A stretch of DNA of 64,000 nucleotides. Source: a virus. The DNA is taken from positions 9,810-73,809 of IMG/VR virus record IMGVR_UViG_3300043571_000313; one strand, 5' to 3'. Under the pieces are notes generated by a model, which was not told the origin of the DNA, made no database searches, and saw only the letters and a program-made list of their open reading frames with translations. The position numbers and the translations under genes were made by a program. Positions within the stretch are counted from its first letter, which is position 1. The number at the start of each line of letters is the position of its first letter. Of the stretch, positions 5,020 through 21,109 are shown piece by piece.

Positions 5020-8000
5020 TGTCTGGCTCAACGAACTCTCTTGTCCAAGGGTACAGGGCGTACCTTGAACGCAGCGGCAAGGTTGACCTCCGCACCGACA
5101 CCGAGCTCACGGTCGAGCTCGGTGACCTCCTGCGCTCAAAGGGCAACGATGCCTTTGATCTGAAGGCGTCGGAGTATCCCGACTTCCGCGAGCAGTACCT
5201 CACAGCCACGCAGTCGACGGATCGGGGTGTGATCGGTGAGGTCGCGGCCGGCGCGCGGCGCGGTGCGCGCAGCCTGGCAGGGACGGCGATGGGTGCCGTC
5301 GCACTCGGCCTCGATGCCGTGGGTGCGAACGAGACCGCGAAGAGTCTGGCCACGAAGGCCGAGGAGTTCGCTTCCGGCGGCGAAGACAATGCGGCCACCG
5401 TCGGCCGGATGAAGGACGTCATAGACGTCGAGGGCGGCGTGCGGTACGCCGCCGGCAAGATCGGCGAGGCGGTTCCGTCCATCGCTGAAGCCCTCGTCAC
5501 TGCCACGATCGGCGCGACGGCTGGCACGGCGGCGGCACCCGGACCCGGCACAGCAGGCGGTGCAGCCGCAGGCTTCATCGGCAAGCAGGCCGTGAAGCAA
5601 ATGATTCGCAAAGGCGTCGCGACACGAATCCTCGGAAAAGATGTTACGGAAGCCGCTCTCGAGACAGCGCTCAAGGATGCTGCCAATGCCACGCTGCGCA
5701 CCGCGTTCGTGAACGAGAGCCGCGCGCTCGCCGCGCGCATGGGTGCCGGCGCCGTCGGCGCGATCAACTCCCTCGGCCTTTCGTCGGGCGAAATCTACAA
5801 CGAGACCGGCGACGTTGCCACGTCGCTCGGTGCTGGCGCCATCGCCGCGATCCCTGACACGATCCTGCCGACCTACATCGTAGGGAAGTTCTTCCGGGGT
5901 GCCGCCAGTGCTGACGACGTGGCGCGAGCGGGCGGTTTCATGAAGCGGCTCGCCACCGAGGCCGCGAAGACCATGCCGATCGAGGCCGGCACCGAAGCAT
6001 TTCAGGAACTCGTCAACATCGCTGCCGTCAAGTTCAACAAGGGCGAGCCAGCCACCCTCGATGCGGCCGACCTCGAGCGCATCAAGGAAGCGGCGGTGGG
6101 TGGATTGGCTGGCGGTTTGGTGGGAGCGCCCATCGCTGCGGCGCCCGCGCCAAACGCCGCCATCGAAGCCCGGCGTGCGGCGGCAACCGGCACGACACCC
6201 CCGCCGCCCGGCACACCTGTTACGCCGCCGCCGCCCCCGGCGCCCAAGACTCCGACGCGCGGCGAGGTTGTGGCGAAGTGGGTCGCGGCTGCGCCAGACC
6301 TACAGGATGCCCGGATCAACGCGCTGCTGCGCGTCACCCGCACCAAGGACGAGGATCAGGAACTCGAAGTCCTGAATGCGCTCGTGTCCCAGCGGCCGCC
6401 GGCCGTCGCCGCCACTGCGACGCCGCCGCCACCCGCTCCTTCGCCCGCATCAACTGCAACCCCTGCGCCGGCCGCATCAAATTGGCTGACCGAACAAATA
6501 GATCGCGATGCTGCGACTGCCGACCGCTTGGGCTGGACTCAGAAGATCGGCGACATGGCGGCACAGCGGATGACGGCTCGCCAGATTCGGGATGCGCTAC
6601 CGTACCGCGAGAACGGCATCGACCAGATGGACGCGATGAGCATTGTGCTTTCCGCTAGGAATAAGCTGAAAATTCCATCGCAGGAAGAGCGAGTAGAATT
6701 TGAGGAATGGATTAAGGCTAGGCAGCAAACCGCTTCCGCGCCTGCCGCAAGCATGGGCACACCACCGGCCGCGCCGGCACCTAGTGCAGTGGGCGCGGCC
6801 GGTGCAACGGTGACGCCGCTGGTGTCGGCACCCACCCCGCCGCCCCCGCCGCCGGTTGTCGCCCCCGCCCCGGCGCCAAAGCCGCCGACGGCCGCCGAGC
6901 TCACTGACCGGATCAACTCCGCGAACCGCCGGTTCGGGACCATCATCAGCCGTGTCCCGACGCTGGACTTTGCGGCGGCGAAGACCGCGCTCGAAGCCAT
7001 CAGCACGTCGCCGACGGACCTCGCGAACGCGGTCCAAAAGTTTGAGGCGTCCGTCGAAACTCTCGAAACGCTCGCAGTCGCCGAGGCTGCGAAGATCGCA
7101 GCGGGCACCGCGCAGAAGCGGCAGGAGGTTGCCACGTCCCGGGCGAAGAACCTTGCCGAAAAGCTGGATGCGCAGGTTGCCGCCGCCGCCGACCGCGCGC
7201 GCAAGCGCGCCGAGAAGAACGCGAAGATTCTGGCGAAGGAAGCCGAGGCGCCTGCGCCTCCCGCACCGGCGCCTCCGGGTTTCCGCTTGGCCACAGATCA
7301 GGAGATGAGCCTGCCTCTTCCATTGGAGGGTCAGTTTGTGCAGACGGCGAGCGGCGTCATATTTCGTGAGGGAGAGCAACCCGTGGGCGAGGCGGTCCAG
7401 CCGGTAAGAGTCGCGGTTTATCAGAAAGGCGAAAGGTTCCTCACGCAGAGACAGTATGAGGCTGAAGACGTCGCTCCGGTGGCGGAACCCGTCGTCACCC
7501 CGACCGTTCCTGCCCCCGCCGATTTACGAGCCGAGCAGGACGAGGCTGAGAGCGAAGATGATGCCGCCGCGACCGAGCAAATGCGCGCCATGGGTCGCTT
7601 CGCCGACGCGCTGCTTGCCAAGCAAGGCAAAAAAGCCGCCGAGGTGGTGCCGCCCCCCACCCCCGCCGACGACCTCAAAACCCGCCTCGATGCCGTGCTC
7701 AACCCTCCTGTCGAGGTGGCGCCGCTGTCGTTCGGCAAGATCGCGGCGATGGATTCGGAGCTGAATACTCAAGGCGCATCAGACAACTCGGGCACGCGCA
7801 CGAAGTCGCGCGTCGCTTACGCAATCCGCGACGATCGCGACACGTCGATCCCGGAGGATCAGCGTCCGGTCTATCTCAAGGGCACCGTCGACTACTCGAA
7901 GGCTGAGGGGCTGCTGCGCGTTGGTCCCGGAGCAACGAAGGGCGTCGGTAAGGCGGTCTTTGCCATGGGTAAGAATCGCGGCAAGCCAGCCGAGCGAACC

Positions 8001-11000: not shown

Positions 11001-14000
11001 TGGCTGCAGCCGCTCGGCCAGAAGTTCGCCGGCACGGGTGAGCTGGCCGGCACCAAGATCAAGCAGATGCTCATTGCGTGGCAGTCGGTGATGTTTCAGC
11101 ACTCCGACCAGGTGGATGCCGCCGCGCGCCGCTGGACGAAGGCGCTGAAAGATGCGTCGAAGGACGCAGGTTACACGAACGAGAAGCGATTCTTCGACGA
11201 GGTGGTGAACCCCGCCATCTACGCCATCGAGAGTGACCCGGGGCGCGACGAGGCCGGCGCTCTCCGCACCGCGCGCAAGGTGGCGGCCCGCATCATTCCG
11301 CCCGCCTACACCGTCGGGCCGAACTTCAACCTGAAGCTGGAGCGGCTGCTGCGCGCGCACAAGGAGGTGAGCGAACTCATCGTTCAGATCGCCGAGAAAA
11401 ATGGCGTGTATGTGAACGACAGTCGCATGCGCGATCCGCTCACGGGCAAGGCCGGCATGCTGCGGCACGCCATCAAGTACGGCTGGTTCACTTCGACTCG
11501 CAGGCTGCGGGGCGAGGCGGTGCGCATCCTGACCAAAGACATGCACCAGGCCGGGTGGCGCGACGACACCTTCACGGATCTGCCCGAGACTGCCGAACTT
11601 GACAAGCTGGTGGGCAAGCACTTCACGCCGACGATCATCAAAGGATTCGTGGAGCCGTTCGTCCGCAAGCCTGGGCGCGAGGTGTTCTTCGGAGCAAAGG
11701 ATGCCAACGATAAGCCGACCTATGTTTCGCAGCTCACGGCGCAGGAGTTGTGGGAAGGCGCTGGCGGCGACGTGATGAAGTTCATCGACGCGATGTATGA
11801 TCGGACCAACCCGCTCGACAATCGCGACGCGCTGCCCGAGTACCGGCGCTCAATCCTCGCCCGCTTCAATCAGCTCTACACGATGGAGTCGAAGCTGGCC
11901 GCAAAGACGGAGTCGGGCGGCGGACTCGATCACATGACGCAGAAGAGCCATCGCGTGATGGACTCCCGCACCAATGACCTGATCCCGCCTGAGCATTTTC
12001 AGTATGACATTTTCTCTCCCATCGATGCGCGGCGGGCACTGACGGAGGTGGCGTTCCACGCTGCGTTCGGCCGCGACGGCGTCGCGCTGGACAAGGCGAT
12101 GATCGATCTCGACAAGGGGCTCAACCTGTCGGCCGACCGCTACAAGATGATCCCCGAGGGCACGCGCAAAGAGAAGGAGGCCTACGCCAAGGAGCAGGGC
12201 TGGGACTTCAAGAAGCTGGAGCGTGCGGCCGACGATCGCAAAGCAGTCTCGGCCTGGAAGGCGAAACTCGTGAAGCACTTCACCGGCAGCGAAGCCGTGG
12301 TCGGCGACGCGCGCACGATGCTCGAGCTCGCACAGCTGAACGTGGCCCTGCTGCTCAATCAGCCGAAGTCGGCGCTGTGGAATCTCCTCTCCATCCTCGA
12401 GTATCCGCTGGTCTATCGCGGCCTCAACCGCAGCTCAGTCCGCGCCACTGCGACGGCCGCGCGCGTGCTGGCGCGCGAGATCACTGGCTCGTTTCTCAAG
12501 GTGGCCGGCGTGAACCTCACCCAGAAATTCGAGTACGCGAATGAGATCGCTGAGATCGTGGAGCGCAAGGAGACGGAGCGCCTGGACTTCGGCACACTCA
12601 TGGCGGACATCGGGCCGGATGGCCGATTCACTCAGGGCGGTGTAGGTAACACCGTGACGGAGGTGAGCCGTGGCATCCAGACTGCGATGCGAAAGGGGTT
12701 CAAGGGTAACAACGCGCTGTGGGCACCCTTCAACTTCATCAGCCACAAGGCCGACACCGCCATCGCGACGGCCAACGTGCAGGCGTTTGAGATGATGGTG
12801 AAGCGCGCGATCGACTACTTCGAACGCCACCCGGAAGCGCGTGACAACCCCGCGTTCCGGCTCACGTCCGACCACCTCGGGATGTCGGAAGGCTGGTTCT
12901 CTGAGGCTGGCACCTTCGACTACTTCCGCACGCGCGCGATGGAGTACGGGCTTGGATCCCTGGAGGACATCGCCCGCGAAGCGGCCATCGGACGTGACAG
13001 CGGCGGCAAGCTGCTCACCCGCGATCAGGCGCTCGGCGTGGCGATGATGGCGCTCAATGAAATCTCGCTGCATGCCGGCGTGAACTCCCGCCTGATCGAG
13101 ATGATCGACAATCCGATCCTGCGCTTCGGCGGCCTGATGCTGGGCTGGCCCCTGTCGAAGGTGAATCAGATCAACGACGCCTTTAAGGATGCCGATGGCA
13201 AGGCGACGCTGGCCTCGGCGATGCGTGCGGTCGGGATCATGGCGGCGTGGACGCTGCCGGCTGGCCTCGCCTACTCGCTAATGGTCGACGAGTATGACGA
13301 CAAGCTCCTGAACAAGAAGTCGAACCTCCGCAGCATCGACCCCATTGCGATCACGCCGGTCGTCGGCCCGCTGCTGGCGGCGGCTTCCGATTCGGGCAAC
13401 ATCCTCGGCATGCTTGAGCGGCTGGCGCGCGCCGGAACCTACGGTATCGTGGGCGACATGGTGAACTCCTTCACCAACGTCGTCGATCCGTCGAGTGGGC
13501 AGCGTGACTTCGACCTCAACAGCCGCGTGCTGGTCTTCAATCAGTTCGCGAACATCCGCGACGTCTTCCGTAACCTCATCCACCAAGACGGCGAGATGAC
13601 GTACCAGTCCACCGGGCGCCCGCTGATCTCGGCGATGGGTGGCGGCGGCCTACTGCAGGCGATGCAGCTGGTGAACGCCCGTCTTGGCCTGACCAACGCC
13701 GAGGCGGCAGTCACGAATCGGATCAACGTGAACAACTACCTGCGCGCTGCCGGCCGTGCCGTCGACATCGAGCTTCGTGGTGGCACCGCCCGCAGCCTGC
13801 CAACAGCACGCTCCGTCTGGCTGAATCAGATGCAGGTGATGGCGCTCTCCAACGATCGCGTTGGATTCGCCGAGGCGTACCGCAACGCCGTCGACGTGGC
13901 CCGCCGCCAGGGCGAGCCGGACCCCGAGGCCAAGGTGCTCGAAGACTTCAAGTCCCGCCACCCGCTTTCGTCGGTGTTCCGCACCAAGCCCTCCGAGGTG

Positions 14001-14213
14001 GAGATGGGCAAACTCATGTCGACTCTTGACGACACAGGGAAGCAGGCGGTTCAGCAGGCACTCGCCTTGTTCGAATCCTTCACTGAGTTAATCGAGCCGA
14101 ACCCAATCATCCAGCGAATCAAGCAGCAGCAGGCGGCACAAATGCGAGCGGCGCAGCCACTCACCATTGAGCAGCTGCGCCGCCGTGCGGCATCAGGTGT
14201 GATGGGTTACTGA
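5019..14213 (+). CDS. giant polyvalent virion/ejection protein with a zincin-like HExxH domain
   Basis: 3064-aa ORF; Gly/Ala-rich N-terminus, Pro-rich linkers, LIHEAGH...EEMLVD at about 9069. Confidence 0.7.
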   Translation: MSGSTNSLVQGYRAYLERSGKVDLRTDTELTVELGDLLRSKGNDAFDLKASEYPDFREQYLTATQSTDRGVIGEVAAGARRGARSLAGTAMGAVALGLDAVGANETAKSLATKAEEFASGGEDNAATVGRMKDVIDVEGGVRYAAGKIGEAVPSIAEALVTATIGATAGTAAAPGPGTAGGAAAGFIGKQAVKQMIRKGVATRILGKDVTEAALETALKDAANATLRTAFVNESRALAARMGAGAVGAINSLGLSSGEIYNETGDVATSLGAGAIAAIPDTILPTYIVGKFFRGAASADDVARAGGFMKRLATEAAKTMPIEAGTEAFQELVNIAAVKFNKGEPATLDAADLERIKEAAVGGLAGGLVGAPIAAAPAPNAAIEARRAAATGTTPPPPGTPVTPPPPPAPKTPTRGEVVAKWVAAAPDLQDARINALLRVTRTKDEDQELEVLNALVSQRPPAVAATATPPPPAPSPASTATPAPAASNWLTEQIDRDAATADRLGWTQKIGDMAAQRMTARQIRDALPYRENGIDQMDAMSIVLSARNKLKIPSQEERVEFEEWIKARQQTASAPAASMGTPPAAPAPSAVGAAGATVTPLVSAPTPPPPPPVVAPAPAPKPPTAAELTDRINSANRRFGTIISRVPTLDFAAAKTALEAISTSPTDLANAVQKFEASVETLETLAVAEAAKIAAGTAQKRQEVATSRAKNLAEKLDAQVAAAADRARKRAEKNAKILAKEAEAPAPPAPAPPGFRLATDQEMSLPLPLEGQFVQTASGVIFREGEQPVGEAVQPVRVAVYQKGERFLTQRQYEAEDVAPVAEPVVTPTVPAPADLRAEQDEAESEDDAAATEQMRAMGRFADALLAKQGKKAAEVVPPPTPADDLKTRLDAVLNPPVEVAPLSFGKIAAMDSELNTQGASDNSGTRTKSRVAYAIRDDRDTSIPEDQRPVYLKGTVDYSKAEGLLRVGPGATKGVGKAVFAMGKNRGKPAERTKTIEPGGSQQVLLEDLAKAGFVPYLRIVFDGEPAAISRHFANMAELDAAIAKTEKVPAATTAVNVAAGRSTLRSDIITTGDAAMTVAESALAPEDAANEQSPAAALAEAMTKVMDGMTTTMLDSIVRRAAKAKASIEATIEGMPAFGRELLKKVMVETDATPAMVVTYVRSSLPADTEIPAGPGTFSLDAKKATTSKTTAAPALKGFDKVPLAALEKLYEVITRSPKNLDGNFDGKELSSGWLDRLNILFERTGMASFDEFVATLDKLSKAAKSPTQFAAALKGKPMYESQEFTVPLPPVGHFEALVQRLRNNGFDVEVIQRELGMTLAGMYRGGKIFVALEDMANANLAGLRRLIHEAGHAVIDQESMQTREDLQRAVESTMSEADNGAIFKAALNAGKDWEEMLVDTTAIKLAEEGFGEKSATIAEAIWRTVKDVYYRVGMAMLRALGVDPSPESVLAWWDNNMRRHLGGDFDFRFTDLFRPHVERNAERVSRFTIADGQDIPDLLDPITGRVTQAEVVPDTVEAAEWNLKFMKDGVAGADMDYTEAMARVTAAAWNEAMPVIQRLKAELLPAGTDDQFWAIFSPSKDTPQKIVEEMEKRVPGAATAKVGGEKMTDAMNSRARAKAFRIITGLARAARKRAAGSEAAITRESDAIVAKAEQLNRADRELRDATAMDAVFNDALRDLIKELSVGIDSGPDTAFAAGKLAGAIREIERLTDKDAIPAEYQNVFKRLLDSGGVSVFDYLSAIARLKLPLGSMKVPDIMKAISENAASDSRLASLNDQRPLAVALSTLARNSTREMDLLQLRSLKDAAEYTSIRAELDEIQVANETRLEEIAKGIDAKAESLSLRDRLKQAYVEARRDFNRSRKTIQRQQELVIQRKRFADVMEERATELSRDVGSFSFWEAHDGAQYRAMTRGDDGKWTATERTLRMVGDEITEQHEQVSHDMAMNRLWLNMHKDQAGSRLYEEVKRQTWELTKLDFAKNYEAATRFRMDRWLQPLGQKFAGTGELAGTKIKQMLIAWQSVMFQHSDQVDAAARRWTKALKDASKDAGYTNEKRFFDEVVNPAIYAIESDPGRDEAGALRTARKVAARIIPPAYTVGPNFNLKLERLLRAHKEVSELIVQIAEKNGVYVNDSRMRDPLTGKAGMLRHAIKYGWFTSTRRLRGEAVRILTKDMHQAGWRDDTFTDLPETAELDKLVGKHFTPTIIKGFVEPFVRKPGREVFFGAKDANDKPTYVSQLTAQELWEGAGGDVMKFIDAMYDRTNPLDNRDALPEYRRSILARFNQLYTMESKLAAKTESGGGLDHMTQKSHRVMDSRTNDLIPPEHFQYDIFSPIDARRALTEVAFHAAFGRDGVALDKAMIDLDKGLNLSADRYKMIPEGTRKEKEAYAKEQGWDFKKLERAADDRKAVSAWKAKLVKHFTGSEAVVGDARTMLELAQLNVALLLNQPKSALWNLLSILEYPLVYRGLNRSSVRATATAARVLAREITGSFLKVAGVNLTQKFEYANEIAEIVERKETERLDFGTLMADIGPDGRFTQGGVGNTVTEVSRGIQTAMRKGFKGNNALWAPFNFISHKADTAIATANVQAFEMMVKRAIDYFERHPEARDNPAFRLTSDHLGMSEGWFSEAGTFDYFRTRAMEYGLGSLEDIAREAAIGRDSGGKLLTRDQALGVAMMALNEISLHAGVNSRLIEMIDNPILRFGGLMLGWPLSKVNQINDAFKDADGKATLASAMRAVGIMAAWTLPAGLAYSLMVDEYDDKLLNKKSNLRSIDPIAITPVVGPLLAAASDSGNILGMLERLARAGTYGIVGDMVNSFTNVVDPSSGQRDFDLNSRVLVFNQFANIRDVFRNLIHQDGEMTYQSTGRPLISAMGGGGLLQAMQLVNARLGLTNAEAAVTNRINVNNYLRAAGRAVDIELRGGTARSLPTARSVWLNQMQVMALSNDRVGFAEAYRNAVDVARRQGEPDPEAKVLEDFKSRHPLSSVFRTKPSEVEMGKLMSTLDDTGKQAVQQALALFESFTELIEPNPIIQRIKQQQAAQMRAAQPLTIEQLRRRAASGVMGY

Positions 14214-14214
14214 G

Positions 14215-15321
14215 TCAGCGGTGCACGTAGCCCTCGGTTACGGCTTCCGAAGTGCGCGAGTGGCCAAGCAGCCGGCCGATCTGCTCGATGGTCTTACCCG
14301 CCTTCTCCATGCGGGTGGCGAACGAATGGCGCAGGCAGTGGAACGACTTCCCCTCGATGCCGAGGTCGGCTAGTATGCGGGCGTAGTAAACGCTGTGCCG
14401 TGCGCGCCTCGCGGGGTCGAGGGCTATCGCGCGCTCATCAGGGAAGACGTACTTCGGGTCGAGGCATTCAGCCATCATGTCGAAGAAGATTCCGCGCAGC
14501 TCGCCGCCGCCGAGAAGCGGGTCGTCGATCGGCAGCGCCACCCGCGCCCCACTCTTCCGCGTCCAGACGACGATCTCATCGGGCATGATGCTGCCCCACT
14601 CCAGGCACGCGCAGTCCGACAGGCGCAGCCCCGCCCAATAGGACAGCGCCGTCCACCACTTCCACTTGCCGGTCGTGTGCGCCATGATGTGCTTGAACTC
14701 GCGCTCGCTGAACGGCACGCGCCGGACCGGCTCCTTCTGCTCATGCGAAAGATCGTTGAGCCGGACCCTAACCAGCTTTGATGGGTTGCCGGCGTAGTAC
14801 GCCTTCGCCGTGACGAAGTCGAAGAACGATCGGATGGATGCGAGGCGCACGTCCCGGTTGCTGGCCGTCGTCGTGTCCTTCTTGGAGTTTACGAATCCAT
14901 CGAGGTGCTCGAAGGTGAGGCGGGTGACCGGCCACTTCGATGCGTCGTTGGCCTTGACCAGGTGGCGCAGCACGAGCTCTTGCGTGCGCACCGTGTTGGG
15001 CGCGGCGTTCGTCTTGCGCCATACTACCCACTCGGCGATCGCCTGATCGAGCGACACCTTGCGGCCGGCCATGATGGCAGTGAGGGCTTCAGCAGTGAGC
15101 GCACGAGCACGCGCCGCCATCTCCATCTCCAGCACCTTCGACTGCACGACGACCTCGCGCGCCTTCTCGATGGTGGATTGCTTTGTCGATCGCGTGTGCG
15201 ACTTGCCCTGCGCGTCGAGGAACTTGACGTGATAGATGCCCGACTCCTGATCGCGGGTCAGGTGGGCATCGAGTTCGGCTTTGGTTGGCACGCCGTAACC
15301 CATGCCATGTGGTGACTTCAT
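14215..15321 (-). CDS. int: tyrosine recombinase/integrase (non-IntI)
   Basis: Catalytic set GLRLSD (R), TRKSG (K), FHCLRH (HxxR), LGH, EGY; N-terminal arm-binding-like region. Start placed at ATG 15321 (or 15303); the longer track ORF overlaps the upstream gene. Confidence 0.92.
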   Translation of the reverse strand: MKSPHGMGYGVPTKAELDAHLTRDQESGIYHVKFLDAQGKSHTRSTKQSTIEKAREVVVQSKVLEMEMAARARALTAEALTAIMAGRKVSLDQAIAEWVVWRKTNAAPNTVRTQELVLRHLVKANDASKWPVTRLTFEHLDGFVNSKKDTTTASNRDVRLASIRSFFDFVTAKAYYAGNPSKLVRVRLNDLSHEQKEPVRRVPFSEREFKHIMAHTTGKWKWWTALSYWAGLRLSDCACLEWGSIMPDEIVVWTRKSGARVALPIDDPLLGGGELRGIFFDMMAECLDPKYVFPDERAIALDPARRARHSVYYARILADLGIEGKSFHCLRHSFATRMEKAGKTIEQIGRLLGHSRTSEAVTEGYVHR

Positions 15322-15337
15322 TTTGAAGATTAAAATG
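15319..15337. promoter_or_regulatory. candidate operator CATTTT-N7-AAAATG over the integrase start codon
   Basis: CATTTT GAAGATT AAAATG; same geometry as sites at 25851, 45108 and 48223. Confidence 0.5.
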
Positions 15338-15351
15338 TGGGTGCTTGCCCG

Positions 15352-15404
15352 GCCGAACGAGTCGCCGGAGCGGACGCTACGCGCCGCTCGGCTTGGTGTT
15401 CGGC
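15352..15404 (+). mobile_element. attC: integron attC-like site 1 (53 bp)
   Basis: R'' GCCGAAC, 5 nt, L'' GCCGGAGC, GG(A)CGC-TAC-GCG-CC, L' GCTCGGC, 5 nt, R' GTTCGGC; two extrahelical bases at canonical positions. Confidence 0.85.
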
Positions 15405-15727
15405 CGATAGTGTTCCGTCCCGGTGGTTGCAAATCCGTATCGTTTCCCGGTCGGGTCCGGGAGCAGTTGGCAGTTGGCGATGACATCACACACCAGCGTC
15501 CGCTCCGGGTCGCGCATGTGCTTCTGCATCTGCGATAGCATGTCCACGCGCCTTCGATTCCAGTCTGCGGAGTGCGTGAGCTTGCGGCAGTGCTCCACCA
15601 GTTCGTCCTGCATGAGCTTTCCGGTCGGGTCGCCCACGGCAGCGCGAATGTCCGCCAAAAGGCCCAACAAGGCGGTCGAGCCAACAGCCGCCTCGCGTTT
15701 CCGTTTCGTTGCGTTCCGGTTCTTCAT
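15377..15727 (-). CDS. hypothetical protein, antisense cassette ORF 1
   Basis: 116 aa; starts inside attC2 (ATGA overlap) and stops at the apex of attC1. Confidence 0.7.
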   Translation of the reverse strand: MKNRNATKRKREAAVGSTALLGLLADIRAAVGDPTGKLMQDELVEHCRKLTHSADWNRRRVDMLSQMQKHMRDPERTLVCDVIANCQLLPDPTGKRYGFATTGTEHYRPNTKPSGA

Positions 15728-15787
15728 ACACTTTTTCTGTCGGCCACGCCCGCTGTCGGCGGCTGTGGCTCACCTTGGTCGTTCGGC
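15662..15787 (+). mobile_element. attC: integron attC-like site 2 (126 bp)
   Basis: R'' GCCCAAC, AAGGC, L'' GGT(C)GAGC, C(A)ACAGCCGCC ... GGCGGCTGTG, L' GCTCACC, TTGGTC, R' GTTCGGC; bottom-strand extrahelical G and T. Confidence 0.9.
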
Positions 15788-16026
15788 AATCGCATCGCGT
15801 GAGCAATTTCGTGCGCAGAATAATCGCTTGCCCGATCACTGCCACCCCCACCTTCAAGTCCGTGCTTTTTGCAAAAACGATCGTACTCGTAATCAGAAAT
15901 GACCGGACGGCACATCACGTAATATAAATACTGATGCGCTCGCATCGTTAAAAATGGCGAACAAGGCGCCACAGCCAAGCCGGACGGCCGCCCGTCCTTG
16001 GTCGCTTCGGTTTCAGGTGTCTTCAT
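15724..16026 (-). CDS. stand-alone NAD-dependent DNA ligase domain Ia-like protein, antisense cassette ORF 2
   Basis: AHQYLYYVMCRPVISDYEYDRF matches the LigA Ia motif HxYxYY...PxISDxEYD; ATG 16026 overlaps the upstream stop inside attC3. Confidence 0.75.
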   Translation of the reverse strand: MKTPETEATKDGRPSGLAVAPCSPFLTMRAHQYLYYVMCRPVISDYEYDRFCKKHGLEGGGGSDRASDYSAHEIAHAMRLPNDQGEPQPPTAGVADRKSV

Positions 16027-16062
16027 GATTTTTCTCCGGCTGGCTGATCTTTGGAGTTGCTG
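15956..16062 (+). mobile_element. attC: integron attC-like site 3 (107 bp)
   Basis: R'' GGCGAAC, AAGGC, L'' GCCACAGC, C(A)AGCCGGA ... TCCGGCTG, L' GCTGATC, TTTGGA, R' GTTGCTG (degenerate after GTT). Confidence 0.75.
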
Positions 16063-16268
16063 CCAAGCGGCGACTGATTCACCCCACTCCAAAAGGACTG
16101 GTCATTCAGCGCGTTCGCGACAGCCTTACATGCCTCCTCGCGGGTCATGCCTTTTGCGATACAAGCCTCGATGGCTGACTGTGCATCGTCATAAAGCATC
16201 TTGCCCACTTGCGCCGGGGTGAGGCCGCAGATTGTGCTCTGAGTTAGGATGGCTTTTTTCTTTTCCAT
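16023..16268 (-). CDS. hypothetical protein ending inside attC3
   Basis: 81-aa ORF starting 12 bp after the helicase stop. Confidence 0.6.
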   Translation of the reverse strand: MEKKKAILTQSTICGLTPAQVGKMLYDDAQSAIEACIAKGMTREEACKAVANALNDQSFWSGVNQSPLGSNSKDQPAGEKS

Positions 16269-16280
16269 AAGAGGGCAATG

Positions 16281-19200
16281 TTACGCCGCCACCTCGATGA
16301 CTGGCGCGAGGACCGGACGGTTGGCAATGATGAGCTGCTTGCGCAGTTCAATCCACTGCGACTCGCACTCCGACTCAGAGAGGACGTCGCCGTCCTCGGC
16401 CTTGAAGTTGACGATGTGCTCGGCAAGAACCTCGCTCGCGTCGAGGGTCTTGAAGTCCCGAGGCACCCGCTTCCCATGCAGGCACAGCGTCGCGGCATCC
16501 TGCTTCAGCGCGACCCGATCGAACAGCAGTTCCTCGATGGAGTTCTGATGCAGGACGCACCAGATCTTCACCGGCTTCGGCGAGGTCAGACGCCACACTC
16601 GACCCTGTGCCTGGTTGAGCGTGCCATAGCTCCACTCGAGCGAGCCAACGATGAGGTTCGGGCATTGGTCGAAGCTGTGCCCTTGGGCGCACTTGATGCC
16701 CATGAGCATGACCCGAGCGTCGCCCTTCTTGAAGCGGTTCGCCTCGGCCGCATGCAGGTCCGGCCGGACGGTGGAGTCGATGCGGGCAATCGGGATCTTG
16801 GCGTTCGCCAGGCGGGATGCCAGCTCCGACGACTGGCCGACGCGCGCCGACACCACCACGACCTGCTCGCCGCGCTTCAGGCAATCGCGCACCAGCTGCA
16901 GGATGGTGATGGTCTTGTGATTGAAGTTGGATTTGCACATGTCCCTCGTGTAGTCGAGGGACGCTGGCGAGGCGCAGCACCCACGCAGCCGTGACGACTG
17001 GACGCGGGCAATGGTCAGCGCGCTCTTGAACTCGGTCAGGTAGTTGCGCCGCTCCAGCCAGAACTGATACAGCTTCGACTGCTCCTTGCCCATGGCGACG
17101 CGGACGTCGATGACCTCGCACGGCTGCAGGTTCGGGTTGCAATCCTTCTTGCTGATGTAGGCGAGCGTGGGCTTGAGCAGCTTCAGCAGGCGGGCTGGCG
17201 AACTGATGACCGGCGAGTGCTTGGTCCCGGTGTTGCGCCAGCCGCGCTTGCCCCGGGCCTTCGCCTTCCACTGTGCAGTCAGATCCTCCTCGACGGAGAG
17301 GAATGTCGAGTTGAACCGGCCGATCTCGTCGACGGCGTAGGGCCAGGCCGCATTGCGCATCTTGCCCTTGTGCCAGTCTTTCACGCACAGCCATCCCATG
17401 AGGGAGAAGATATTCGAGATGACATTGGGGATCGGTGTCGCCGTGAGGGCGAAGCGATACTTGGGCTGCAGGCGGAACAGGTTCTTTGTTACCTGCGCCT
17501 CTGCGTTACAGTAGAGGTGCGCCTCATCGCAGATGACCATGTCCCACGCATCGCCGTGGGTGGAGGCGACGATCGTGGCGAGCGACGGCAGGCCGATGCA
17601 GCGAATGCCGTGCTTGTTGCCCGCGCCGACGTTGCGGCAGAACTGCTCCTCGACCGGGCGCTTCTCGTCATACTTGAGGTTGAAGCGCTCGCAGAACTTC
17701 TTCTCCGCAACCCGATCCCAGCTTTCGGGAAGATGCTCGAAGCCACCGTTGCTGAAGTAGGCCTGCGGGTAGGTGATGTAGATGCCGGGCGGGAGTTCGC
17801 CGGCGTTGGCATGGAGGATGGCGTACCAATCCTCGGCGCTGAAGAGCTGGAAGACCGGCTCGCCGGGAGCGAAGCGCTGGATCTCGGACACCCACTGCGA
17901 TGCTTGATAGTCGATCTCCTCATCCTCCTCGGTGGAGCGCATCGTACCCTGCGGTGCGATCAGCAGCGTGCGCTTCGGAGACTTGAGGGCGATGAGCGTC
18001 AGGGCGCCGAGCGACTTGCCGGTCCCCGTCTCGGCTGCGACCAGCCCGTAATCCTTGCACGCCATGCGAGCGTAGAAGTCCAGCTGGCCGGGGAAGTAGG
18101 TAAACCCAGCCATCATCTCATTGAACCGCATCGCGTTCTTGTTGCGCTCGAACTGATCGACCTCGACCTCGGCGATCGTCGGGACGAACGGCTTGTCGAA
18201 GAGAGTCCACAGCATGTCCTCGGGGTGCTGCCAGCTCATGCCTTCGGCCGGCCGATCCATGAACCGATGCACGCGGCGGTGATCGTCGGTCACCTCGATG
18301 TAGCGATCCTCGCCGGACAGCCGGCACTCGTGATCCTCGATCTCCGTGGTGTCCTCGTCCTCGTCGTAGTAGATCTTCTTGCGGGTGAACTTCTCCGTGA
18401 AGGTGTAGGTCCCGGTGCGAATCTCGTACCGCTTCCCGACCGTGAGCTTGATGATGCCGGCCTCGTGCGCGGCCTTGCACTTCAGCGCCTCCTCCTCGTC
18501 GGCGTAGGCAACGAGCTCGAAGTCCGTGACCGGCATGATGGGACACGCCATCGAGGCGACCTCAGCCAGGGCGGCGGCGATAGCCTTGCGCGCCTCGGGC
18601 TGGATCGTGTAGATGCCGTCGTTGACGAACTGATGCAGCAGCTTCCGCGTCTCCTTCTCCGTGGTCAGCGTGAGCGGGTGGCACCCATTGATGCGGTGCA
18701 GCCGGACGATCTCGTCGTCCTTGATCTTCACCTGTGCACGGGTGCTCAGGTAGGTGCGAAGCGCGCCGTCCTTGCCGAGGTAGATATTAAACTTCGGCCG
18801 GTCGAGGTGTTCTTCCTTGATGATCTTGGACAGGTTATTCCAGTCGAGGTAAAGCGAGTAGTGCTCAGTGTAGGGTGAGTACCAGTACGGCTGGCCGGAC
18901 ACCTGATGCAGGTTGCTCTTGATCGTGCGTCCGTACTCGAAGAGCTGTTGCTGATCCGGCATGTGGTCCCACACCTTCTGATTGCGCGGCCGGCCGACGA
19001 TGTTGCCGAAGTGCACGATGCCGAGCTCGACATCGCAGTTCTCCCAGATGCCACCGGCGGGGAACCGCTGGTAGAGGTACACCCACGGGTCATCCTGAAT
19101 GCCGAGCTTCTCAATCGTCTTGGCGTTGGAGATGAGGAAGCCGCAGCCGTTGTTCGCGAGCCGCTTCTTGATCATCTGCCACGTCCACTCGGTCGAGTCG

Positions 19201-19652
19201 ATCGTCTCACCATTCGCCAGCTTCCAGCGGATAGCGAACGGCGGGTTCGACACGATGCACGGGAAGCGCAGGTTCGGGAAGATCTCATCCATCACCTCGA
19301 AGGTGTGGACGCAGGACCCGGTGATGCGGTCGACGGGTTTGTCCCAGGTGTTGCGGCCGGTGAGCGAGGTGCGCGCCGCCTCATCCTCATCGGCGAAGCG
19401 CTTGTCGATCTCGGTGCCGTAGTATTGCTGCGCCGAGAGCGCGCGGATCAGGTTGCCGCCGGCGCACTGCGGATCGAAGACGGTGTTGAAGTTGCCGAAC
19501 GGGAGCTGGGCCACGAGGCCTTGGGCAAGCCAAGGCGGTGTTTGATACTGCTGCTGGCCGCCCTGAAGCGCGTGCTTCGCGGAGACGGCTGCGTCGATGA
19601 CTTCCTGGATGTTTTCGTTTTCGATCCCGGAGCGTGCGTCGGTGATGTTCAT
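16281..19652 (-). CDS. N6-adenine methyltransferase fused to SNF2-family helicase (DarB-like)
   Basis: YQTP, FDPQCAGG (motif I), SNPPF (motif IV); AETGTGKS Walker A, DEAH, ALTATP, QAQGRVWR. Confidence 0.88.
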   Translation of the reverse strand: MNITDARSGIENENIQEVIDAAVSAKHALQGGQQQYQTPPWLAQGLVAQLPFGNFNTVFDPQCAGGNLIRALSAQQYYGTEIDKRFADEDEAARTSLTGRNTWDKPVDRITGSCVHTFEVMDEIFPNLRFPCIVSNPPFAIRWKLANGETIDSTEWTWQMIKKRLANNGCGFLISNAKTIEKLGIQDDPWVYLYQRFPAGGIWENCDVELGIVHFGNIVGRPRNQKVWDHMPDQQQLFEYGRTIKSNLHQVSGQPYWYSPYTEHYSLYLDWNNLSKIIKEEHLDRPKFNIYLGKDGALRTYLSTRAQVKIKDDEIVRLHRINGCHPLTLTTEKETRKLLHQFVNDGIYTIQPEARKAIAAALAEVASMACPIMPVTDFELVAYADEEEALKCKAAHEAGIIKLTVGKRYEIRTGTYTFTEKFTRKKIYYDEDEDTTEIEDHECRLSGEDRYIEVTDDHRRVHRFMDRPAEGMSWQHPEDMLWTLFDKPFVPTIAEVEVDQFERNKNAMRFNEMMAGFTYFPGQLDFYARMACKDYGLVAAETGTGKSLGALTLIALKSPKRTLLIAPQGTMRSTEEDEEIDYQASQWVSEIQRFAPGEPVFQLFSAEDWYAILHANAGELPPGIYITYPQAYFSNGGFEHLPESWDRVAEKKFCERFNLKYDEKRPVEEQFCRNVGAGNKHGIRCIGLPSLATIVASTHGDAWDMVICDEAHLYCNAEAQVTKNLFRLQPKYRFALTATPIPNVISNIFSLMGWLCVKDWHKGKMRNAAWPYAVDEIGRFNSTFLSVEEDLTAQWKAKARGKRGWRNTGTKHSPVISSPARLLKLLKPTLAYISKKDCNPNLQPCEVIDVRVAMGKEQSKLYQFWLERRNYLTEFKSALTIARVQSSRLRGCCASPASLDYTRDMCKSNFNHKTITILQLVRDCLKRGEQVVVVSARVGQSSELASRLANAKIPIARIDSTVRPDLHAAEANRFKKGDARVMLMGIKCAQGHSFDQCPNLIVGSLEWSYGTLNQAQGRVWRLTSPKPVKIWCVLHQNSIEELLFDRVALKQDAATLCLHGKRVPRDFKTLDASEVLAEHIVNFKAEDGDVLSESECESQWIELRKQLIIANRPVLAPVIEVAA

Positions 19653-19666
19653 GGAGTGAAAGAGGT

Positions 19667-19698
19667 GGCAGCCCCACGCTCACTCTCGTGGGGCTGCC
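19667..19698 (-). terminator. strong intergenic hairpin (terminator or processing site)
   Basis: GGCAGCCCCACG-8 nt-CGTGGGGCTGCC, perfect 12-bp stem; only a weak U-tract. Confidence 0.45.
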
Positions 19699-19753
19699 GG
19701 TTCTCATGTCTGCGCACTGCGCAGAAATTGTTACTGTTTAGTTGAGGTTACAT

Positions 19754-21109
19754 TCAAGACATTTCCGCTCGGCAATTACCGGCTGCGAAGGCGGACCAGC
19801 GGGTCACGGAGCAAATGATCTGACTGAAGCTGGATACTTCCACGCCCTGCCCCATCGCCTCGCCTGCGGTTGTCTTCGATTCGCCGAGGTCGTATCCATC
19901 CGGCAATGCCATGATGAGCTTGACCTCCGTGATCGTAAGCCAGCGATACCTGTCGGAATCATTCGGGTGCACGACGACAGGGTTGTCGCCCTGCCCTGCG
20001 AAGTACCTCTTCTTGATCGTGCCGATGGTGCGGTCAGTGTAGTGGATAAGCTGAGACGCGAAGCCGTTGCCCTTTGTCGTCTGCTTTTGCCAGTGGTCGA
20101 AGAGCCAGCGCTTCGTCGGCGTCTTGCGATCAAACCACTCGCATGCGGGATCATCCGGCTTGAGCAGGTAGTCCGACAGGCAGGCGGCGCTGGTCTGCGG
20201 CTCGGGCCAGCGAACCGAATCGAACGACGTCGCCACCATGACAGCGCGCTTGCGCTGGGTGATGGCGCCATAGTCGGTTGCGTTGATGACCTTCCAGTCG
20301 ACGACGTACCCCATCCGGCGCAGCGCATGCCGTGCGATCCAGCCTGCGCCAGAGTCGAGCCACGCCGGAACCTCCTCGATGACGACCGTGTGCGGATTGA
20401 AGACATCCACTGCACGCAGCGTCCAGAAGGTCATGTCCCCCAGCTCGTGCGCCTCGGGCACGAGGGTCTTGTCGACCTTCGTGTTCGTGCCATCGTTCCG
20501 CCGGATCTTCGAGAACGGCTCGCATGGGATGCCGGCATGGAGGAGGCCCACCGGCCCGATCATCCTCGCAGCATCCTCAATGCGGGCATCGGCGATGTCG
20601 GAGTTCATCATGTGCCCGCCGTGGTTGGCGTCATGGATGTTCGCGTAGTCCGTATTCCATTCGACCGCCGCCCTCGTCTCGAAGCCCGCAGCCTTGGCGG
20701 CCTGACTGAGCAGGCCGGCTCCGACAAACAGGCCGACGGCGACAGATGTGGCGACGCGCGCCGCCACATTGGCGAGCGTGCGGGCCGGCGTTATGGTGAT
20801 CGTGTGCATCGTCATCCTCACGGCGATGCGCTCGGTGTTGGGGAACACCTTGGCGAGATCCGCCGTGCTGATGTCGATGATCGGGTGCGCGCCGTCGCCG
20901 CGATCCCGGCCGGACACAGTGCGGTCCTGGGCGACGGCATTGCCGAACGCCTCGAGGGTGACCTTGCCCACCTCGAAACGTGCGGAGAACTTCGTGCCTG
21001 GGAGGAAGCCGGCCTCGCCGAGGCGCTTGCCTTCGATCCAAACGCGGGGCTTGCCGCGAGACTGACCGAGCTTCAGCTCGGTGTCATACTGGAAGGGTTG
21101 GTTTGTCAT
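19754..21109 (-). CDS. DNA (cytosine-5)-methyltransferase with N-terminal AbrB/SymE-like domain
   Basis: LFVGAG (motif I), GIPCEPFS (catalytic PC), IEEVP, QRKRA, RWLTITEV; N-terminal PRVWIEGKRLGEAGFLPG. Confidence 0.88.
   Translation of the reverse strand: MTNQPFQYDTELKLGQSRGKPRVWIEGKRLGEAGFLPGTKFSARFEVGKVTLEAFGNAVAQDRTVSGRDRGDGAHPIIDISTADLAKVFPNTERIAVRMTMHTITITPARTLANVAARVATSVAVGLFVGAGLLSQAAKAAGFETRAAVEWNTDYANIHDANHGGHMMNSDIADARIEDAARMIGPVGLLHAGIPCEPFSKIRRNDGTNTKVDKTLVPEAHELGDMTFWTLRAVDVFNPHTVVIEEVPAWLDSGAGWIARHALRRMGYVVDWKVINATDYGAITQRKRAVMVATSFDSVRWPEPQTSAACLSDYLLKPDDPACEWFDRKTPTKRWLFDHWQKQTTKGNGFASQLIHYTDRTIGTIKKRYFAGQGDNPVVVHPNDSDRYRWLTITEVKLIMALPDGYDLGESKTTAGEAMGQGVEVSSFSQIICSVTRWSAFAAGNCRAEMS

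Follow-up and report, generated by a model that had tools for sequence, protein, structure and literature searches.

Introduction

Integrons are bacterial platforms whose cassettes are expressed from one promoter, each gene lying on the top strand of its attC recombination site. Integrons of what is called the 'inverted integrase' group have intI turned round, with the cassette genes still lying on the attC top strand. Phage-borne integrons and clusters of attC sites lacking integron integrases (CALINs) have been described, and some of their attC sites are active with IntI1 (Qi et al. 2023, PMC9892861); the occurrence of attC in a phage is already known, having been reported recently and with phages only as carriers (PMC9892861). 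The features of attC sites and the effects of attC on cassette translation have also been treated (PMC8946536). Here we describe three attC-type sites in a stretch of phage DNA of 64,000 nucleotides, hereafter the window, which comprises bases 9810-73809 of the 73,809-base IMG/VR virus record IMGVR_UViG_3300043571_000313, a record with direct terminal repeats from a phage described as temperate, of 73.8 kb and from lake water. The sites lie between the genes for a helicase/methyltransferase fusion (Hel) and a tyrosine integrase (Int), and three short open reading frames (ORFs A, B and C) run through them on the minus strand in the order Hel, ORF A, ORF B, ORF C, Int.

Literature searches returned no report of arrays combining bottom-strand genes, fixed-phase read-through of the site and stop/start overlap in its apex. 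On the evidence presented below it is probable, in our judgement, that these attC sites work as frame-locked, recombinogenic gene connectors.

Structure of the sites

The covariance model R1, whose seed consisted of nine homologous hairpins and included only 15346-15408 among the window sites, was run on the whole window with the filters off. It gave three matches, all on the minus strand (Table 1), with the next best reaching only 16.9 bits, and the same three and no others were returned from the whole 73.8-kb phage. In site 1 an outer stem (CGGCCGAAC/GTTCGGCCG) leads through 5-nt unpaired spacers to a bulged inner stem, at whose 3-nt apex the stop codon of ORF C is found; the site ends 26 nt ahead of the start of int, its DNA fold has z values of -3.6 and -4.4, and homologues of its hairpin with compensatory changes are found in two relatives, L112 and L123. 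In site 2 the 5' arm is formed by the tail of ORF B, the apex by the junction with ORF C and the 3' arm by approximately the first 22 codons of ORF C. Its R box (GTTGGGCC) encodes LLGL, and its folding, with a long-range stem containing a bulged T, beats that of shuffled sequences (z -2.5). Site 3 is organized in the same manner, with the tail of ORF A in the 5' arm, a GGAG, a spacer and the start of ORF B in the apex, and approximately the first 24 codons of ORF B in the 3' arm. The direct repeat at 15657-84 and 15951-78 corresponds to the 3' R-box region common to sites 2 and 3. On the plus strand the R boxes read GCCGAAC/GTTCGGC in site 1, GCCCAAC/GTTCGGC in site 2 and, in degenerate form, GGCGAAC/GTTGCTG in site 3.

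The preliminary description of this locus had noted stop/start overlaps inside the attC variable regions, a TAG in the apex of the first attC and a crossover triplet read by all three ORFs as an in-frame AAC codon for Asn, and all of these are present. The sequence tcat, ATGA on the coding strand, stands at 16023-16026 (A/B) and 15724-15727 (B/C), in the apical inserts of sites 3 and 2, respectively. The TAG of ORF C (15377-15379) lies within the apex of the hairpin 15350-15406. The GTT at 16056 is read as AAC in ORF A (..GSN-SKDQP..), that at 15781 in ORF B (..LPN-DQGEP..) and that at 15398 in ORF C (..RPN-TKPSGA*).

In the consensus of nine aligned elements the outer stem (CC.AAC / GTT.GG) is invariant and is followed by an internal loop and an inner stem of 13 bp. 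On its 3' arm, in the model strand, this inner stem has two single-base bulges that are conserved, and eight of the nine seeds have a T at the first of them; the apex insert varies from 0 to about 70 nt across elements. In placement, the feature compared, the bulges fit the attC bottom strand as set by two bacterial integrons (L035 and L135, see below), and they may correspond to the canonical extrahelical T and G of the R''-L'' arm. In one alignment (A6) 96.9% of the cells are paired and double compensatory changes occur in 11 of 18 pairs. None of 500 shuffles reached the observed value, sliding the partners gave only 26-41% paired, and all 13 inner pairs covary. In a second alignment (A7, 54 elements) the paired fraction is 94.6% with 219 double changes, and AAC/GTT is retained in 50-54 of the members. 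The inner helix of this alignment contains about 7 G-U-type cells versus 215 double changes. Since wobble pairs are few and the R stem is invariant, a DNA site with a sequence-specific box fits better than a structure acting as RNA only. The pattern points to pairing under Watson-Crick constraint on both strands together with a sequence-specific R box, as in attC. An RNA hairpin may also be relevant to coupling.

Several other candidate signals were considered. Early folds of 15715-15800 and 16010-16080 gave no excess structure; these short windows were uninformative because the far arms had been cut off, and they were superseded by the model search and by longer folds. The motif AAC-N(1-2)-CCAAR was seen 14 times versus 5 expected, an excess for which codon usage may account, and it was set aside. 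The heptamer GTTCGGC is not enriched in the window (19 occurrences versus 17.6 expected), which is uninformative either way, and the pairwise similarity of the three window junctions is modest (p 0.01-0.14). An early leaning towards a single hairpin among ordinary coupled genes fell on comparison with relatives. A scan of the whole window against Rfam, which has no attC family, returned no family at gathering thresholds.

Relationship to attC sites of integrons

Matches to R1 were found beside true integron integrases in three bacterial genomes. In a Panacagrimonas metagenome-assembled genome (L035, CAXBFJ010000001.1), whose IntI scores 473 bits, 9-11 matches (E 1e-8 to 1e-12) lie at the 3' end of opposite-strand cassette genes, in the canonical arrangement; others adjoin an IntI of 490 bits in genome G195 (L135) and a truncated IntI in Zoogloea (L136). 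Throughout, the matches keep one polarity relative to the integron integrase. Because they stand beside true IntI, the window sites can be assigned to the attC family, and since canonical integrons set the model strand as the attC bottom strand, all three window ORFs lie on the bottom strand, an orientation already noted in the preliminary description and borne out here. By homology, then, the window sites are classed as attC-family sites read on the bottom strand. They possess the R''/R' boxes (RYYYAAC ... GTTRRRY) with AAC/GTT and the structure-conserved stems with variable apex of attC, and the three of them fall within 720 nt without an IntI, as in a CALIN. No IntI was found anywhere in the phage, and the adjacent IntI with the family insertion that makes a complete integron is absent from the window; the place of intI relative to the attC polarity of canonical integrons is occupied by Int.

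A phage contig of 56.8 kb and 92% completeness (L005, IMGVR_UViG_3300013800_000011) carries an IntI at 6231-7241 (TIGR02249 280.5 bits, cut-off 265) in which the IntI-specific insertion KYP..W.W..FP is present. Nine R1 matches lie upstream of this IntI and the genes, including a homologue of ORF C, are on the model strand. Together they make up a complete phage-borne integron with bottom-strand genes.

The Panacagrimonas integron also contains one gene of the opposite orientation. Its attI/intI-proximal cassette (L035:5904-6328) holds a bottom-strand ORF C-like gene (LLGLLADIRAAVGDPTG domain) that points at intI and ends GGCCCAAC|GCCTAA, that is ..WPN-A*, at attI, much as capture of a phage-type cassette there would be expected to leave it. 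Such a cassette would be consistent with phage-host traffic. An ORF C-type gene precedes the integrase in both the window and this integron, and a functional link of the ORF C family to recombination is possible. Elsewhere in genome G195 (C10; L129:1949-3267) two R1 matches flank an opposite-strand DUF6602 gene near an insertion sequence transposase; this pair looks like an isolated cassette or small CALIN away from the IntI contig of that genome.

Reading frame across homologous arrays

For each of the 54 elements the longest open frame upstream was taken, and the 47 with at least 40 open codons were counted. The AAC stands in frame 0, 1 and 2 in 37, 7 and 3 of these elements, respectively, and in 30, 7 and 3 after collapse to 40 upstream protein families (binomial versus 1/3, p 8.5e-8). 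Four of the ten exceptions come from the bacterial integron, with genes on the other strand, and constitute a small internal control. In the phage loci all R1 matches except one are on the gene strand, the upstream stop falls within the site in nearly all frame-0 cases and the downstream ATG does so in most, and no preferred phase was found for the 3' GTT in the downstream gene. A tabulation of this kind had been asked for in the preliminary description, where chance agreement of the three window frames alone was put at 1 in 9. Gene strand, frame and stop/start position in the homologous arrays all agree with what was supposed there, the frame at R' being beyond chance. The view of attC as the gene connector of a coupled operon is likewise supported, as a reading, by the strand, the frame and the homology to sites beside IntI.

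The frame rule would also be explained if the hairpins were mainly mRNA devices that couple or insulate genes, sequestering the ribosome-binding site and start until opened by the upstream ribosome, with the repeats recombining incidentally and without a site-specific recombinase. Only frame 0 puts the stop in the apex, and the apices of window sites 2 and 3 each bring stop, ribosome-binding site and start together, as happens also in L011, an array of at least five elements, one per gene junction, whose apices hold the upstream TGA, an AAGGAG-type ribosome-binding site and the next ATG. Gene shuffling by recombination between repeats is known from the PeSL repeats of T4-type phages (PMC2839356), and the deletion described below is bordered by 13/14-nt direct repeats. 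This explanation does not account for the rarity of G-U cells relative to double changes in the inner helix, nor for the AAC/GTT boxes, which never covary, suggesting sequence recognition. It is further opposed by the presence of the same family as cassette ends beside IntI, on the non-coding strand, by the lack of a start codon in site 1 and by the boundaries of homology, which concentrate at AAC instead of being scattered over the repeat. We consider it unlikely.

Variation among relatives and in lake populations

The preliminary description had anticipated that exchange would swap only a short attC-encoded tail and that excision of a cassette would keep the frame; both are seen in the sequences. 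Homologues of ORF C at 72-89% identity are present on many viral and metagenome contigs, where their neighbours differ and are unrelated among loci. At the DNA level they resemble the window only as far as GGCC(C/G)AAC, the ..RPN codons, and the tails that follow AAC, of 4 to 29 residues, comprise at least five unrelated versions. The ending ..WPN recurs in proteins that have another C-terminal domain (L007-L011), again at the entry to a hairpin, here closed by CCGAAC/GTTCGG. In L043 (498-1340) a 134-nt direct repeat occurs twice, the copies agreeing at 99% of positions from AAC on; each has a 111-nt attC-type hairpin, and the two bracket an opposite-strand gene for a 192-aa signal-peptide protein right after the ORF C homologue. 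Two elements (..TPN-AELTGA.. and ..GPN-TQLTGA..) are found in a bacterial Mu-like prophage (L123).

The syntenic relatives, which were found via the helicase, keep Hel, Int and the large convergent gene (see below), and the interval between Hel and Int in L112-L122 contains 0, about 150, about 330, 960 or about 1100 nt of small ORFs. It is an insertion hot spot of this phage group. The closest of these relatives (L112, with an Int 63% identical) has one different, zinc-ribbon-like ORF between Hel and Int, ending ..SPN-AELTGAKRPV* within a hairpin that is homologous to site 1 and has compensatory changes.

A variant of the locus itself was seen in the lake metagenomes. In run X6 a contig joins 15397 to 15781, skipping 383 nt with seven shared letters (GTTCGGC), so that the body of ORF C and site 2 are gone (Table 1) and ORF B would read on, by sequence, in frame as ..LPN-TKPSGA*. 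Contigs start exactly at 15781 in runs X7 and X10. Two loose ends of run X6, at 15370 and 15404, may be one chance 35-nt match and were not used as evidence, because an 81-nt hairpin query gives weak 20-40-nt matches in 29 of 401 GC-rich genomes, the unpublished G296 among them. Other contig ends of run X6 (15714 and 16090), together with a depth drop across ORF B, lie away from the cassette boundaries and are unexplained; they suggest further population variants.

This polymorphism bears on the possibility that the array is a fossil, that is, a set of cassettes derived from an integron or from a phage integron like that of L005 and now fixed, with the in-frame layout as an ancestral remnant. 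The missing IntI, the degenerate state of site 3, the lack of a distal site for ORF A and the foreign G+C content at third codon positions (GC3) of ORFs A and B would all suit such a remnant. A fixed array, in contrast, would not be expected to show presence/absence polymorphism in the lake, with breakpoints exactly at R boxes in three of four runs, nor sites 1 and 2 still scoring 47-57 bits with their stems intact. A fossil origin of the present layout is, in our estimation, decidedly unlikely.

Neighbouring genes

The coordinates of the sites, the genes and the indel are collected in Table 1.

Table 1. Sites, genes and variable segment of the Hel-Int interval (window coordinates)
Feature	Position	Strand	Remarks
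attC-type site 1	15347-15406	-	60 nt, minimal form, 56.5 bits
attC-type site 2	15657-15789	-	133 nt, 46.7 bits, E 2.5e-11, outside seed
attC-type site 3	15951-16063	-	113 nt, degenerate, 23.2 bits, E 1.8e-4, outside seed
Cassette-like indel (ORF C body + site 2)	15398-15780		GTTCGGC at 15398-15404 and 15781-15787
ORF A	16268->16023	-	81 aa, GC3 0.61, without close relatives
ORF B	16026->15724	-	100 aa, GC3 0.53, small phage protein family with NAD-ligase domain-Ia-like motif
ORF C	15727->15377	-	116 aa, conserved LLGLLADIRAAVGDPTGKLMQDELVEHC domain
Tyrosine integrase (Int), phage type	15321->14215	-	by profile scores and alignment to IntI
SNF2 helicase / N6-methyltransferase fusion (Hel)	19652->16281	-	upstream edge of variable interval

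Between ORF C and its homologue in L005 the substitutions at codon positions 1, 2 and 3 number 11, 4 and 43, and ORF C is a genuine coding gene on the minus strand under purifying selection; the protein Atlas search returned nothing for it. The family of ORF B is widespread and consists of phage proteins of 55-130 aa with little beyond the motif of the NAD-dependent DNA ligase domain Ia (HQYLYY..P..SD.EYD..C...GGGGSD); P0001 is a relative of ORF B at 96%. A search with ORF A returned only ORF A itself and one repeat-protein match, its residues 25-55 resembling a motif that occurs seven times in a 737-aa protein of the representative library (P0030). The GC3 of ORFs A and B contrasts with the 0.79-0.88 of ORF C, Int and the helicase and with about 0.8 for the genome, which suggests recent acquisition of both from sources of lower GC. 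The phage collection yielded no DNA match, and loci close to those of Int, ORF A and ORF B were likewise missing from the viral contigs searched. The stretch 13500-20500 contains no promoter-like site, none of the sites was called terminator-like and no T run follows site 1.

Int and a convergent gene encoding 3064 aa have their stops 1 nt apart, leaving no other non-coding space next to int, and in L112 hairpin and int are conserved together, so that site 1 might be (part of) the attP of Int, the mosaic edges then arising from Int-mediated attP x attP exchange between co-infecting phages; this is very unlikely given that such hairpins also form arrays far from any integrase (L011) or stand beside IntI (L005, L035), that the 39-nt spacing of the R boxes is unlike a double-stranded core site, and that no prophage junction was found, no Int homologue being found at E<=1e-25 in the 401 genomes searched and junction and core patterns being absent from the viral contigs.

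Discussion

The reading that we favour for the Hel-Int interval can be laid out as follows. The interval holds three integron-type attC sites whose bottom-strand genes run through them. The 5' arm of each site encodes the last few residues of the upstream protein, always entered via the AAC of the R box as Asn; the variable apex carries the stop of the upstream gene, a ribosome-binding site and the start of the next gene, and the 3' arm encodes approximately the first 20 residues of the next protein. The crossover, which is G|TT in the top strand and reads AA|C when coding, would then fall at a fixed codon phase throughout the cassette pool. Recombination between any two sites could in this way remove, add or reorder a gene body and exchange a short tail while the coupled operon is kept. 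The catalyst could be an integron integrase, from the host or from a co-infecting phage, or the adjacent phage Int, acting at the R box, and the frame standard may have been selected for its modularity. Exchange at the R box by a recombinase, as well as this selection of the frame, we infer from the arrangement of the sequences.

Several observations weigh against the sites being active connectors. The mobility of the sites is itself something we infer from their sequence. The deletion joint is represented by a single contig of depth 2 with a short side of 30 nt, a length (23+7 nt) that matches the assembler's k-1 overlap. The deletion could just as well come from recombination at short homologies, here the 13/14-nt repeats CTTGGT(C)GTTCGGC. 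Site 3 is weak in the model (23.2 bits) and folds no better than shuffled sequences (z -0.7), and no site lies upstream of ORF A. The tails of the window, L002 and L045 share N-[TS][KE][LP]S[DG], which speaks for descent and not for swapping. The frame bias could be a by-product of a need to place the stop within the apex; in L011 the non-zero frames either stay open or produce a fusion to the following gene. Finally, the window Int scores 34.8 bits with TIGR02249 versus the cut-off of 265 and has a gap where IntI has ..KYP.A...W.W..FP, so that on profile and alignment it is not classed as an IntI.

A wider extension of the connector reading is that phages and bacterial integrons of freshwater Proteobacteria share a cassette pool with a common frame-locked interface, tradeable between phage and host, in which any cassette would fit any position of the coupled early operon, since AA|C is always Asn and each attC brings stop, ribosome-binding site and start; this is quite possible, though we would not call it probable. 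In the window the recombination site is at the same time coding sequence of fixed phase: one protein takes its tail from it, the following protein its head, and the two genes their stop/start overlap. If the wider reading is true, the early genes of the phage, possibly counter-defence genes among them, could be reshuffled on demand in an integron-like manner. Active sites would amount to a natural standard-interface system for building polycistronic operons, as well as a route by which early genes, the usual home of takeover and anti-defence functions, could be gained, lost or traded with host integrons.

Comparison with known systems

The window sites share with integron attC sites the R''/R' boxes (AAC...GTT), the unpaired spacers, inner stems kept as structure and not as sequence, single-base bulges on one arm, a variable apex, a length of 60-133 nt and the placement of one gene between neighbouring sites. 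Homologous sites adjoin IntI, and an array without IntI, as in the window, corresponds to the definition of a CALIN. Unlike integron cassettes, the window genes are on the bottom strand and pass through the sites, and the triplet at the crossover is invariably read in frame as Asn. The stop/start overlap in the apex would give one coupled operon, with transcription running towards the integrase gene, and the adjacent recombinase is of the phage Int type, not an IntI. The integron of L035 has the same attC family, the same site polarity relative to the integrase and an ORF C-like bottom-strand gene in its first cassette, but its other cassettes are top-strand, divergent from intI and ending before or at the site, and its integrase is a true IntI. 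In the 'inverted integrase' integrons genes and integrase gene point one way, as in the window. The attC polarity of the window relative to its integrase is, however, the canonical one, and it is the genes that have switched strand instead.

Two repeat systems of phages offer a further comparison. The PeSL cassettes of T4-type phages (Arbiol et al. 2010, PMC2839356; PMC4122927) resemble the window in that repeated stem-loops flank small non-essential genes in hyperplastic regions and in that recombination between them deletes, inserts or circularises genes. A PeSL, however, is an intergenic promoter plus terminator, whereas the window sites are translated, homologous to attC and without a promoter-like site. 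The start-associated sequences (SAS) and extended SAS (ESAS) of Cluster K mycobacteriophages (Pope et al. 2011, PMC3203893) are likewise repeats at the translation starts of a subset of genes, some with inverted repeats around a variable spacer, but SAS is a 13-bp motif upstream of starts with no link to integrases or to the upstream frame and no sequence relation to the window sites. PeSLs and SAS/ESAS are functional analogues only.

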